Shown: in pieces, positions 18,659-23,376 of the stretch
Numbering within the stretch: position 1 is the first letter of the stretch
How the letters are laid out: each line of letters opens with the position of its first letter
Sequence record: NC_041873.1
DNA length: 50,298 nucleotides
Reading direction: 5' to 3' (one strand)
Origin: Escherichia phage JMPW2
Translations under genes and position numbers: made by a program
The notes under the pieces: model-generated
The model's input: only the letters and a program-made list of their open reading frames with translations
The model's database searches: none
Told to the model about the DNA's origin: nothing

Positions 18659-19046
18659 GTTATCAGCGGCGGCGCGAGCCGCTTTTCTATCAAAGTACAG
18701 AGACTTTCCTCACTACATGGAAAACAGAAATTTCACACCTCCTAAGGATGGCGGCATGTGGCTGAGGTTCAACTACATTGAGGGGGATACGCTTTATCTA
18801 TCCATTGACAGAAAGTGTAAATCTTACATCGCAATCGTTCAGATCGGCGTAGTGTTCCCTCCAGGCTCCGGCGTTGACGAAGCAAGATTGAAGGCAAAAG
18901 AGATTGCTGATTTTTTCAAAGATGGTAAAATGCTTAACGTTGGTTATATTTTCGAGGGTGCAATCGTGCATCAAATTGTTAAACATGAAAGCGGGTGGAT
19001 GATTCCGGTTCGCTTTACAGTACGAGTAGACACAAAGGAGACTTAA
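18648..19046 (+). CDS. tail terminator-like protein
   Basis: Position upstream of major tail gene. Confidence 0.4.
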   Translation: MHYELSAAARAAFLSKYRDFPHYMENRNFTPPKDGGMWLRFNYIEGDTLYLSIDRKCKSYIAIVQIGVVFPPGSGVDEARLKAKEIADFFKDGKMLNVGYIFEGAIVHQIVKHESGWMIPVRFTVRVDTKET

Positions 19047-19047
19047 T

Positions 19048-19716
19048 ATGCACTTACCAAATGGCGCGCAAATTTTCGTGGAAACCTCTCGCGGAGAAGA
19101 GATAGAGGCGACCGCTGTCACTAACGAAAAAAATCCTGTTGCTACAGTTGCATCTAAGGGCGACTTAGCAAAAGGCGATTACGTTATTGTAACTCAGTCA
19201 ACCTGGGCCAAGATGGTCAGTCGAGTGCTAATTGTTACTGACGCTCAGGAAACAAGCATCACTCTTGCTGGGATTGACACCTCTGATACTCTTGTTTTCC
19301 CGGCTGGCGGTACGATGAGCTTTGCAAAAATTACTGGCTGGACTGAGATTCCTTGCGTACAGGAGATTGGTCAGGACGGCGGCGAGCAGCAGTATTATAC
19401 TTATCAGTGCTTGTCAGACGATAAAGAACAGCAGATCCCAACGTTTAAATCTGCGATCTCGCTAACGTACACTTTCGCGCACGAATTTGATAACCCGATC
19501 TACCAGATTCTGCGCAAGCTGGATTCGTCTGGTCAGGTAACAGCGGTTCGAATGTACGTTCCGAAAGCGAGCGAAATGCGTATGTGGGCTGGCATCTTGT
19601 CGTTTAACGATATCCCATCCACGCAGGTTAACGAAATGGAAACGGTGGAACTCGCCGTATCCCTGAAAGGTGACTTTACTTTCATTTCCTCCACTCTGGC
19701 ATCGCCTGGTGCTTAA
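19048..19716 (+). CDS. major tail protein
   Basis: 222 aa gene immediately before chaperone pair and tape measure; followed by terminator. Confidence 0.6.
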   Translation: MHLPNGAQIFVETSRGEEIEATAVTNEKNPVATVASKGDLAKGDYVIVTQSTWAKMVSRVLIVTDAQETSITLAGIDTSDTLVFPAGGTMSFAKITGWTEIPCVQEIGQDGGEQQYYTYQCLSDDKEQQIPTFKSAISLTYTFAHEFDNPIYQILRKLDSSGQVTAVRMYVPKASEMRMWAGILSFNDIPSTQVNEMETVELAVSLKGDFTFISSTLASPGA

Positions 19717-19728
19717 ATCCTATCCATA

Positions 19729-19750
19729 GGGGGCTTGCGCCCCCTTGTTC
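19729..19750 (+). terminator. rho-independent terminator
   Basis: gggggc ttgc gccccc plus T-rich tail. Confidence 0.6.
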
Positions 19751-19791
19751 ATTTCTGTAAAATCATCCTATCAACTTTATTCGATTAACTT

Positions 19792-19808
19792 TTAACAAAA
19801 AGTGCTAT
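19792..19808 (-). promoter_or_regulatory. palindromic box upstream of tail chaperone gene
   Basis: ttaacaaaaagtgctat then CAACCAATCAGGAG leader. Confidence 0.5.
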
Positions 19809-19829
19809 CAACCAATCAGGAGAAACATC

Positions 19830-20147
19830 ATGGCTAAATTCAATTTCGTGTTGGGCCAACTTCCAGACTTCAAACTTCCGGTGACATTCACCATGCCAAA
19901 CGGCGAGGATGCGACTATTATTTTTACAGTACGCCACCTTTCCAGTAAAGAAGTGCAAGATATGTATGCGAAGCAGGGCGAAATGAATGATAGCGATTTC
20001 ATCACTAAGATCGCGTCAGGCTGGAATCTGGAAGAAGAATTTAACGAAGAGAATGCGCGTAAACTGGTACAGTATTATCCTTCCGCAGCATACAATCTGA
20101 CGGCAACTTACATCAAGGCGCTCGCCGGACACCGCGCAAAAAACTAA
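19830..20147 (+). CDS. tail assembly chaperone (G-like)
   Basis: Position before tape measure; ends at slippery site. Confidence 0.65.
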   Translation: MAKFNFVLGQLPDFKLPVTFTMPNGEDATIIFTVRHLSSKEVQDMYAKQGEMNDSDFITKIASGWNLEEEFNEENARKLVQYYPSAAYNLTATYIKALAGHRAKN

Positions 20148-20464
20148 AAAGGGCGGTTTATCTGTTATATCAGAAACCGCCGACAGAAGAGCAATTGCGA
20201 TCGGTTGGTCTTAGTCTTTCTGACTATGAAGGCGAGGAACCGGAAACGATAATCGGCGATGCTGAAATGGTGAAGGCGTGGAATGTTTTTACGTCAATGC
20301 TCACTCAGTGGAGAAGTTCAGGCGCTGGAGCTTATGGTCTTGACTATAATGTTTTGCCTATGTTGTTCAAAATCTATAAAATAGAAGATGAAGAACTGGC
20401 ATTGCAGGACGTTAGGATCATGGAAGCGAAAGCGCTTGAAATGATTGCTAAGCAAAACAACTAA
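19830..20464 (+). CDS. tail assembly chaperone GT-like frameshift fusion
   Basis: -1 shift at 20138..20144 joins G frame to ORF 20195..20464, which has no ATG of its own. Confidence 0.55.
20138..20144 (+). other. -1 programmed ribosomal frameshift slippery heptamer A_AAA_AAC
   Basis: AAAAAAC in X_XXY_YYZ phase 1 codon before the G stop; -1 frame open to 20464; hairpin ggcggttt...aaaccgcc 6 nt downstream. Confidence 0.6.
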
Positions 20465-20487
20465 GCCGCCGTTTGGCGGTTTTTTCG
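20464..20487 (+). terminator. rho-independent terminator
   Basis: gccgcc gttt ggcggt plus T5. Confidence 0.6.
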
Positions 20488-20502
20488 TATATAGGGGGTT
20501 AT

Positions 20503-23376
20503 ATGGTTGATAAGGTAGCAGGTCTGTCGCTTGACGTTGATGTGTCAACAGTGCAGCGCGCCGTCAAGTCACTGAAAGAGTTTTCAAAGGCCAACGACCA
20601 GGCCGCTGATTCTATGGGTTCTTTAATCAATGAGTCAGAGGTTGCAAAACAGAAGGCCAAAGAACACGCTGAACAACTCAGGCGTCAGAGAAAAGAGTAT
20701 GAGGCCGTGGAGAAGGCAATCGATCCTACAGTATCAAAAATGGAAAGGTTGAAGATTGCATCTCAGCAGCTTGATAAACTCTGGCAGCAGGGAGTCGTTC
20801 CAGATGAGACATTTTTCCGTTTGGGTGAAATGCTGGATCTGCAAAACGCAAAACTTGCTCTCAGCCGGGCTATGCTTACGGAAGAAGGTCAGGCGGCATT
20901 GCAGGAAGCGAAAGCAAAAGAGCAGGCGGCAGCACGAAGCAAGGCGTTCATGGATGCCCTGAATGGTCAAGTTAACGCGATCGGCAAGACTCATGCTGAA
21001 TTGATGGAACTGAAAGCGGCTGAGCTTGGTTTATCGAAAGAAGCAGCACCACTAATCGCAAAACTTAAAGATCAAGGCCGGGCTATGAATGCAGCAGGTA
21101 TTAGCGCCGGGGAATACAGGCAGGCAATGCGAATGCTTCCTGCACAGATTACCGACGTCGTTACATCTCTTGCATCCGGCATGCCAGTTTGGATGGTTGC
21201 CATCCAGCAAGGCGGTCAAATCAAGGACTCGTTCGGCGGGATCAGTAATACGTTTAAAGTGTTGCTGAGTTATATTAATCCAGTCACAGCAGGGGTTGGC
21301 GTTCTCGTTGGCTCGTTAGGTCTTCTGGCGAAAGCTGGTTATGACTCTTACAAGTCAATAACTGATATTCAGAATGCGCTTATTGAGACTGGCGGTTATG
21401 CAGGTGTTACGGCTGAAGAGCTTGATTCAGTGTCTAAAAAGATCGCACAGACAAGCAACTCAACCATTGGGAGTATTCGCGATATTGTAACGGAGTTGGC
21501 GAGTTCTGGTAAGTACACCCGCGAGCAGATCCAGAACATCACTAAGGCTACCGCAGAGTGGTCAGCGTCAACAGGAAAATCAGCAAGCCAAATTATTTCT
21601 GAGTTCGACAAAATCGCAAGCGATCCGGTAAAAGGCCTGAAGAAGTTAAACGAGCAATATAATTTCCTTGAAAAAGGGCAACTTACCTATATCGATACAT
21701 TAAGCCGGACGAAAGGAGAAACTGAGGCAGTATCAGAGGCTACCAAACTATTCGCAGACGTAATGGAAAAGCGAATGAAGTCGATCGCGGATAACGCTAC
21801 TCCTCTGGAAAAGATGTGGAGCGATATTAAACAATGGGCTTCGGACGCGTGGGGATGGGTTGGTGATCATACACTCGGGGCGCTAAACCTGATTGTCGAC
21901 GTTGTTCAGGGTACAGTGATTCAGGTTAAAATGATTCTTGCGAAGGGTGATGAGTACATCTCAAACTTTATCGCCTCAGCCATAAAGGCAACTCAGTCAC
22001 TACCTGGAATGAGTGATTTCGGCGCTGATGTGCTGAAGGAGCAGGAGAACATCGTAAAAAGTTCTCGCGACAACTACGACCAGTTGGCTTCAGAGCTTGA
22101 TGCTATTAACGCTCGCGTAGAAAAAGGCGAGATGGGATACGTTGAAGCGATGAAGCAGCGTCGAACTCTTGAAAAGCAGTACAGTGAGGAAACTAGGGAG
22201 GCAATAAGGAAAGAAGCAGAAGAGATCGAGAAGCGAAACCGAGAAAGAAATAAGCAGTCGAAAATTGTACGCTCACCGACAGAGCAATTCGACAAGGAGT
22301 TAATTTCACTCAAGGCTCAACTTAAGGTATTGCAGGAGCATAAGGAGATCGGTCAAAAACTTTCCGCGCAGAGAAAGGCGCTGTTTACTACCGAGGCTAC
22401 GATTGCTGTTCTTCGTGAAGCCAGCTCTAAGCGTCAGTTGTCTGCGGAAGAAAAAGCGTTGCTGGCAAGTCAGGAGAGAGTTATTGAGCTTGCGAAACAG
22501 AAGGCCGAGATTGGCGATCAGATTGTTAAGCAACAACAGTTGAATGATCTTACCGATAAATCTCTGAAGTTTGTCAATGAGATGACGGCAGCTACAGAAC
22601 AGCTAAACGCGTCTCGAGGGATGAGCACCCGAGAAATGGAAAGGCAAGCTGAGTTGGCTAAGATCACTACTGATTATATTAATGCAGGTGGCAGCGAAGG
22701 AGATGAAAAACTCCAGAACATGATCAAGGCACAAAATGATTACTATGCTGCGGAAGATGCCAAGCGTTCTGACTGGTTAGCAGGTGCTGAAAGTGCATTT
22801 GCAGATTACGGCGATTCTGCAATGGATATGTACGGCAATGTGTATGATATCGCGTCAAGTTCACTTAACGGAATGAGTGACATGATGACCCAATTCCTGA
22901 CTACAGGTAAGGCAAATTTTGAGGACTTTGCGAAAAACATCATTAGCATGATTATCAAGATGATTGCTCAAATGGTAATCTTCAATACGATCTCAGGCAT
23001 GATGGGCGGTAAGACGTGGAGCTTTGCTGGAGGGGTGTCGCCTGGTGCTTCTGCGGTATCACAGGCAACTCCTACGCCTGCCGTCTCTGGTTTTAGGTCT
23101 TTATCTTCAGGCGTCGCTGTTACCTCGCTTGCTGCCGCTGCGGGTAGTGTTGCAACATCTGGATTTAACGCATCTAAATCCGCACCGAAGGCAGTGAACC
23201 AATCAGCAGGCGGGACGGTCGTTGATGTTAGGGGTATGGAGGTTAAAGTTGACAACGGTTCAGATCCGAGAGGAATTTCTCAGGGCGTAGAAATGATGTT
23301 CAAAAAAATGATTCGAGAGTCTTGTTCACAGGGCGGAGAGGTTTACAATTACATTCAGGAAAAAACAGGAGGCTAA
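20503..23376 (+). CDS. tail tape measure protein
   Basis: 957 aa, coiled-coil rich, hydrophobic segment near C-terminus, directly after chaperones. Confidence 0.85.

Follow-up and report, generated by a model that had tools for sequence, protein, structure and literature searches.

Probable Programmed −1 Ribosomal Frameshifting at a Tail Assembly Chaperone Gene of a T1-Like Phage

Tail Chaperone Frameshifts in Known Systems

In phage lambda, ribosomes shift by −1 close to the 3' end of a small gene that separates the major tail gene from the tape measure gene, which yields an abundant short product, G, and a rare C-terminally extended one, GT, in a ratio of approximately 30:1 (Levin et al., 1993; Xu et al., 2004, 2013, 2014). 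Both proteins are absent from virions, and the ratio between them matters for assembly. The locus described here has the same layout. It lies in a stretch of 50,298 nucleotides of Escherichia phage JMPW2 (NC_041873.1), referred to below as the window. However, the slip sites are not alike. Lambda has G_GGA_AAG, a strong heptamer in E. coli, whereas the window has the weak A_AAA_AAC. In the window, the zero-frame stop directly abuts the heptamer, and a stable hairpin begins 7 nt after it. Lambda is not known to require a downstream structure, and lambda G and T presumably belong to Pfam families other than the Phage_TAC_4 and DUF1799 families found here.

A_AAA_AAC is an experimentally proven −1 site in E. 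coli, where the insertion sequence IS1 uses it at low efficiency. It is a weak shifter in that host, yet one that still exceeds 0.1% without stimulators. The insA-insB' junction of IS1 carries the same heptamer as the window, but it belongs to a transposase, has no established stimulatory structure and shares no homology with the phage genes. A_AAA_AAC is also the g-t shift site of the haloarchaeal virus HCTV-2.

The closest described systems are those of T1 and its relatives, and it is clear that the feature is no discovery. It is the well-known tail chaperone frameshift, and a T1 fusion with this junction has been in the databases before. The T1 record (AY216660.1) has a two-piece CDS, CPTT1_039, named "tape measure chaperone, frameshift product" (AAP50000.2), which overlies the short CDS CPTT1_038 (AAP49960.1). 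This is the same gene pair as in the window, with 97.8% DNA identity and with the AAAAAACTAA site and the hairpin identical. Citrobacter phage Sazh has a joined CDS built like that of T1 and shares the site. Together with Stevie and U136B, Sazh represents other genera (Tlsvirus and relatives) whose homologous genes carry the same site at approximately 60% protein identity to the fusion predicted for the window. The genome announcements of Stevie and U136B mention the conserved chaperone frameshift. In Sazh, Stevie, and U136B alike, the frameshift was annotated bioinformatically. In the literature covered, which lay outside the original T1 paper and that of Xu et al. (2004), no experimental detection of the fusion protein was found for T1 or for any member of the Drexlerviridae.

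The Locus and Its Neighbors

A megablast search with positions 19000-21500 of the window matches 93 phage records, of which the best is Escherichia phage vB_EcoS_SH2 (KY985004) with 100% identity. Phage T1 is 95.9% identical. INPHARED has 424 matching records, and IMG/VR includes the window itself as a contig of 50,298 bases. On these identities the phage is a T1-like siphophage of the genus Tunavirus (Drexlerviridae). The genes follow the usual siphophage tail order, 5' to 3' on one strand: major tail, G-like reading frame, overlapping −1 frame and tape measure. The chaperone pair therefore occupies the place between the major tail and tape measure genes that G/GT occupies in lambda. The features of the locus are as follows.

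19048-19716, plus strand: major tail protein gene, the directly upstream neighbor of the chaperone pair
19728-19745, plus strand: terminator-like hairpin that separates the major tail gene from the chaperone gene; Sazh annotates a rho-independent terminator at the equivalent place
19830-20147, plus strand: G-like tail assembly (tape measure) chaperone of 105 aa, the product of normal translation; Phage_TAC_4 family, annotated "tape measure chaperone" in T1
20138-20144, plus strand: putative slip site A_AAA_AAC, whose X_XXY_YYZ phase fits the G frame
20145-20147, plus strand: zero-frame stop TAA, which abuts the 3' end of the heptamer and ends G
20141-20464, plus strand: −1 frame extension of 107 codons, the T-like part, identified by its translation; positions 108-212 of phrog_17368; the T1 fusion that contains the equivalent part is AAP50000.2
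20152-20181, plus strand: hairpin 7 nt 3' of the slip site, with a 7-bp lower stem, a 2-nt bulge, a 4-bp upper stem and a 6-nt loop
20195-20197, plus strand: TTG at which a separate ORF of 89 aa is annotated to begin; in all likelihood a Leu codon inside the frame rather than a start
20264-20446, plus strand: DUF1799 domain (PF08809), residues 146-206 of the predicted fusion (E 2.6e-11, 44 bits against a cut-off of 26)
20463-20482, plus strand: terminator-like hairpin and T-run immediately 3' of the −1 frame stop, ahead of the tape measure gene; T1 and Sazh both have a rho-independent terminator annotated here
20503-23376, plus strand: tape measure gene from its ATG, the directly downstream neighbor of the chaperone pair

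Two observations concern the surroundings rather than the frameshift. The chaperone cassette is bracketed by the two terminator-like hairpins at 19728-19745 and 20463-20482, which may tune the relative expression of the tail genes. In addition, the mechanical list of ORFs starts the tape measure gene at TTG 20473, a position inside the second of these hairpins. In the T1 and SH2 records the gene begins at ATG 20503, after a GGGGG Shine-Dalgarno-like run, and this is the more plausible start.

Two Frames and One Predicted Fusion

The zero-frame product belongs to a known chaperone family: over residues 1-105 it matches Pfam PF08748 (Phage_TAC_4) with an E-value of 2.6e-37 and a score of 128 bits, where the cut-off is 21. 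No stop interrupts the −1 frame between 20063 and its end at 20464. With the zero frame read through AAA and one A then re-read, the predicted fusion is join(19830..20141,20141..20464), a protein of 211 aa. If the Asn codon were decoded before the shift, the coordinates would be join(19830..20144,20144..20464). Built by the first rule, the fusions predicted for T1 and Sazh match the deposited AAP50000.2 and YP_009812464.1 exactly, and U136B has a 210-aa homolog of the fusion. The T1 fusion has the same length and junction as that of the window and differs from it at two residues. The exact fusion sequence of the window itself had no match in the protein collection.

One clue that the two halves belong together comes from phrog_17368, a family of 213 positions. 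The short product covers positions 1-107 and the −1 extension positions 108-212, end to end. The family spans both halves with the join at the heptamer and so must have been built from joined products. A sequence search of solved structures returned nothing related, only spurious proteasome matches with E-values of approximately 0.03.

Taken with the conservation described below, this leads us to conclude, with a probability of about 0.9, that programmed −1 ribosomal frameshifting gives this T1-like siphophage two forms of its tail assembly (tape measure) chaperone. Most ribosomes would read 19830-20147 and stop at TAA 20145, giving the 105-aa G-like chaperone. A minority would slip back by one base on the A-run at 20138-20144 and continue to 20464, giving the 211-aa GT-like fusion with the DUF1799-containing C-terminal part. 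If the two products work as G and GT do in lambda, the N-terminal part common to both would coat the tape measure protein, and the major tail protein would be recruited by the rare C-terminal part. The efficiency of the frameshift would then keep the long product at a low, fixed ratio to the short one. A weak motif with a moderate hairpin fits a chaperone of which the long form needs to be rare.

The initial annotation of the window had proposed much of this, describing itself as made from sequence alone, which is fair as an account of its method. Its in-phase A_AAA_AAC near the end of 19830-20147 and the extent that it gave for the open −1 frame are both borne out, and the TTG at 20195 that it took from the ORF list does lie in that frame. 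Its claim of a conserved G/GT chaperone arrangement is likewise supported by position, by the Phage_TAC_4, DUF1799, and PHROG 17368 assignments, by the lack of a usable start for the T part, by conservation and by the annotation of T1, Sazh, and U136B. However, it also stated that the −1 frame has no ATG, and this is wrong. There are five in frame, at 20267, 20297, 20360, 20420, and 20441, although none is near the slip site.

The Slip Site

The zero-frame codons at the junction are GCA (20136), AAA (20139), AAC (20142), and TAA (20145), so that the last codon of the heptamer is also the last sense codon of the ORF. The whole of the 19830-20147 gene holds a single in-phase X_XXY_YYZ motif, the one at 20138-20144, and it lies within the overlap of the two frames at 20063-20147. 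The chance of finding an in-phase heptamer somewhere in this 28-codon overlap is approximately 0.10, and because of this the heptamer alone is not significant. Its combination with a correctly spaced and unusually stable hairpin and, above all, with comparative conservation is far beyond chance.

Conservation was assessed with 17 annotated and 80 IMG/VR loci, of which 88 could be parsed to give 80 distinct sequences. Of the 88 parsed loci, 73 have the motif AAAAAACT[AG]A, including some with protein identities as low as approximately 50%. The remaining 15 have A_AAA or A_AAG at the same Lys codon. In Klebsiella Webervirus-like phages (L015, L086-L097) the heptamer is replaced by GCA_AAA_GYY_TAA, where GYY is GTC, GCC, or GTT, and in Rtp-like phages (L077-L081) by GCA_AAG_GTC_TAA. 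These tetramer-bearing clades have the G stop in the same place and still conserve the −1 peptide (K)(S/G)L(R/K)RAVYL. Both tetramers, A_AAA and A_AAG, are −1 motifs of E. coli insertion sequences (Sharma et al.). The stop, TAA or TGA, sits at exactly the equivalent position in 88 of 88 parsed relatives. Perhaps this adjacent and fixed stop adds to the shift by slowing decoding.

Constraint at the slip site extends to synonymous positions. In the codon alignment of the fusions, the codon that precedes the A-run always has A as its third base (GTA in 48 of 48 cases where the residue is Val and GCA otherwise). The AAA AAA CTA codons are nearly invariant, whereas neighboring four- and six-fold degenerate codons have a codon entropy of 1.4-2.0 bits. 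Synonymous variability, taken as the 5-codon sliding mean of normalized synonymous entropy, reaches the minimum of the whole 211-codon alignment at the slip site, with a value of 0.21 at codons 103-107, lowest at 104-105, compared with a mean of 0.74.

Could the shift also be helped from upstream? A Shine-Dalgarno stimulator like that of dnaX was considered and rejected, as nothing resembling AGGAGG occurs 8-14 nt upstream of the slip site. The Gly codon at position 100, which is GGG in some relatives, varies freely, and this also counts against an upstream Shine-Dalgarno-like stimulator.

Four IMG/VR loci (L018, L048, L074, and L082) have five A residues rather than six in the slip-site run, which would place T in the +1 frame. 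L048 resembles an older copy of Vibrio phage Vc1, the current RefSeq version of which (L014) has six. L074 and L082 carry further frame breaks, as does L033, a locus whose slip-site run lay outside this survey of five-A runs. Natural +1 variants were considered for the four and rejected; most likely they are homopolymer sequencing errors at a slippage-prone site.

Ribosome or RNA Polymerase?

What if the ribosome does not shift at all? RNA polymerase might sometimes add one A within the run of six, and the fusion, ...RAKKLKR..., would then arise by ordinary translation. Homopolymer runs are known to give mRNA insertions and deletions, according to a source that deals with AAAAAAA and UUUUUUU, and the product would be the same as the fusion deposited for T1. 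However, the run in the window consists of only six A. Efficient bacterial transcriptional slippage is reported for runs of approximately nine or more. Relatives with a run of four A (GCAAAAGTC) or of three A and a G (GCAAAGGTC) keep the G/T arrangement. Such runs fit ribosomal tetramers and are too short for the polymerase, and because these relatives manage with them, transcriptional slippage is unlikely. The stable hairpin at 7 nt, the classic spacing of a ribosomal stimulator, points the same way, as does the listing of A_AAA_AAC in IS1 as a case of proven −1 ribosomal frameshifting. Slippage by the polymerase is thus left with a very slim chance of accounting for the fusion.

If a ribosomal frameshift is the correct reading, it could take either of two routes at this site. 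Tandem slippage, with tRNA-Lys in the P site and tRNA-Asn in the A site, would give ...RAK-N-LKR.... Slippage of tRNA-Lys alone would give ...RAK-K-LKR..., the form deposited for T1 and the same peptide that would result from an A inserted by RNA polymerase. For the tetramer-bearing relatives, the tRNA-Lys route would be the only one. Perhaps, then, the signal of the clade has three parts: a weak Lys-codon shift site (A_AAA_AAC or A_AAA/A_AAG), a fixed stop one codon after the Lys and a clade-specific hairpin. In this hypothetical scenario, a single tRNA-Lys would slip throughout, with the junction ...AKK-LKR... rather than the textbook tandem ...AKN-LKR.... The proposal is tentative, and we consider it rather unlikely as a whole. 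If it is true, single-tRNA slippage on a Lys codon would be a small mechanistic refinement.

A Separate Downstream Gene?

Most deposited records do not join the two frames. vB_EcoS_SH2, SH6, and the majority of the others annotate two separate CDSs; the SH2 record, unlike that of T1, has two ORFs with the second starting at TTG 20195 and no joined CDS. This raises the possibility that the downstream ORF is a gene in its own right, translated from TTG 20195 (89 aa) or from ATG 20267 (65 aa), and that the heptamer is incidental. In-frame TTG and ATG codons are certainly present, and databases contain many DUF1799 proteins of 63-104 aa.

The candidate starts do not hold up well in relatives. At the position of TTG 20195, the 80 distinct sequences have CTT in 30 cases, TTG in 26, TTA in 20, CTA in three, and CTG in one, so that 54 of 80 lack TTG. 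T1 itself has TTA AGA where the window has TTG CGA. The starts annotated for the T part differ among records, and the ORF lengths range from 168 to 300 nt, a scatter typical of gene callers faced with a frame that lacks a real start. No Shine-Dalgarno-like sequence precedes 20195 or 20267. In the −1 frame there is no start codon at all between 20063 and 20194, and no ATG in the first 68 codons, a stretch that spans the slip site and runs on for another 41 codons. In short, the downstream ORF has neither a conserved start nor a Shine-Dalgarno sequence that would allow its own translation.

A further objection is that there is conserved coding sequence upstream of every candidate start. The 18 codons from the slip site to 20195 (codons 105-122) are conserved as −1 frame protein, while their synonymous sites vary (Y111, Y114, K116, P118, T119, and D120). 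A conserved 15-residue peptide begins right at the slip site and is followed by (D/E). Such a pattern would be unexplained if the segment were untranslated, and we therefore conclude that it is translated. The trough in synonymous variability, moreover, falls at the heptamer.

Two candidates can accordingly be set aside. Independent initiation at TTG 20195 or ATG 20267 was rejected on the grounds of an unconserved start, no Shine-Dalgarno sequence and conserved coding sequence upstream. Termination-reinitiation after TAA 20145 was rejected as well, there being no ATG, GTG, or TTG in the −1 frame within 48 nt. Conserved upstream coding and variable starts thus leave both poorly supported, and two independent genes would be a most improbable account of the locus.

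The Downstream Hairpin

A hairpin follows the slip site, as the initial annotation had noted, but two of the details given there need correction. The spacer is 7 nt (20145-20151) rather than 6 nt, and the 3' arm ends at 20181 rather than 20182. The lower stem pairs GGCGGUU (20152-20158) with AACCGCC (20175-20181), and the upper stem pairs UCUG (20161-20164) with CAGA (20171-20174). The minimum free energy is −16.8 kcal/mol (z = −3.0 against shuffled sequences), and the same hairpin is present in both the minimum free energy and centroid structures of a 161-nt fold. Only 0.28% of 38-nt windows in this genome fold as stably. In Rfam, no family covers the site or the hairpin and there is no match to a frameshift element at this place. 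The sole "FSE" match is on the minus strand at 19706-19745, with 18 bits against a cut-off of 45 and an E-value of 0.76, and it overlaps the terminator-like hairpin at 19728-19745.

The hairpin probably slows the ribosome at the slip site, which would make the heptamer, a poor shifter in E. coli, more efficient. We consider it probable, although well short of certain, that the structure at 20152-20181 stimulates frameshifting. There is another way to look at it, and one that is compatible with a ribosomal frameshift. What if the shift is real, with the heptamer and perhaps the adjacent stop being sufficient, and the hairpin is only a by-product of the codons for R-A-V-Y-L...Q-K-P-P? GCG, CCG, and CTG are common codons in E. 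coli. Moreover, the arms encode the conserved residues RAV and KPP, so part of the conservation of the arms is at the level of protein. The precedent of IS1, in which A_AAA_AAC works with no established stimulator, also fits a by-product.

The distribution of the hairpin among relatives can be argued in both directions. Every T1-, TLS-, Hanrivervirus-, or Warwickvirus-like sequence retains the hairpin, with a stability of −13 to −20 kcal/mol and a spacing of 6-7 nt from the slip site. Kyungwonvirus, Rtp-like phages and several metagenomic clades lack it, and the existence of clades that keep the slip site without this hairpin favors a by-product. In contrast, the fixed spacing of 6-7 nt across T1- and TLS-like clades is not what a by-product would be expected to show, nor is a stability in the top 0.28% of the genome with a z-score of −3.0. 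Webervirus-like phages, which have a different 7-bp stem in a similar place, also argue against it.

Evidence from synonymous sites is similarly divided. Within the hairpin-bearing clade, third bases that are paired show little or no variation (all 54 sequences have CTG for L112, and most have CAG for Q115). Sites in neighboring codons that are unpaired or tolerate wobble (Y111, Y114, K116, and P118) have entropy at or near the maximum. This contrast speaks against a by-product. The same test applied to A109 and P117 is circular, as the subset was chosen on GGCGG and CCGCC. In addition, GTC at codon 110 is found only with AAG at codon 116 (six of six cases), a co-occurrence that suggests a base pair between 20158 and 20176 and again argues against a by-product. 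However, the overall covariation is weak. Among all 43 distinct sequences, examined in two registers, 76% of cells are paired, compared with 73-74% after shuffling. The score for covariation, 0.135-0.138, is no higher than the 0.154-0.157 obtained when the partner is slid by one (the slide −1 control), which fits a by-product. Weighing these points, we regard the by-product reading as possible but somewhat doubtful.

Annotation of the T Part

In RefSeq and in the records of several submitters, the chaperone and the T-part ORF alike go under the name "tail length tape measure protein," a label that seems to come from the PHROG family name. SH2 and most T1-like records give the T part either this label or that of a separate "hypothetical protein," with arbitrary starts. 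The labeling of the T part is a systematic mis-annotation across the Drexlerviridae.

The finding is of little importance beyond annotation quality. Within that scope, the joined CDS of T1, Sazh, and U136B should be propagated to SH2 and the other T1-like records. Slip site, adjacent stop, clade-limited hairpin and tetramer replacements together offer a reusable signature by which chaperone genes can be annotated across the Drexlerviridae.
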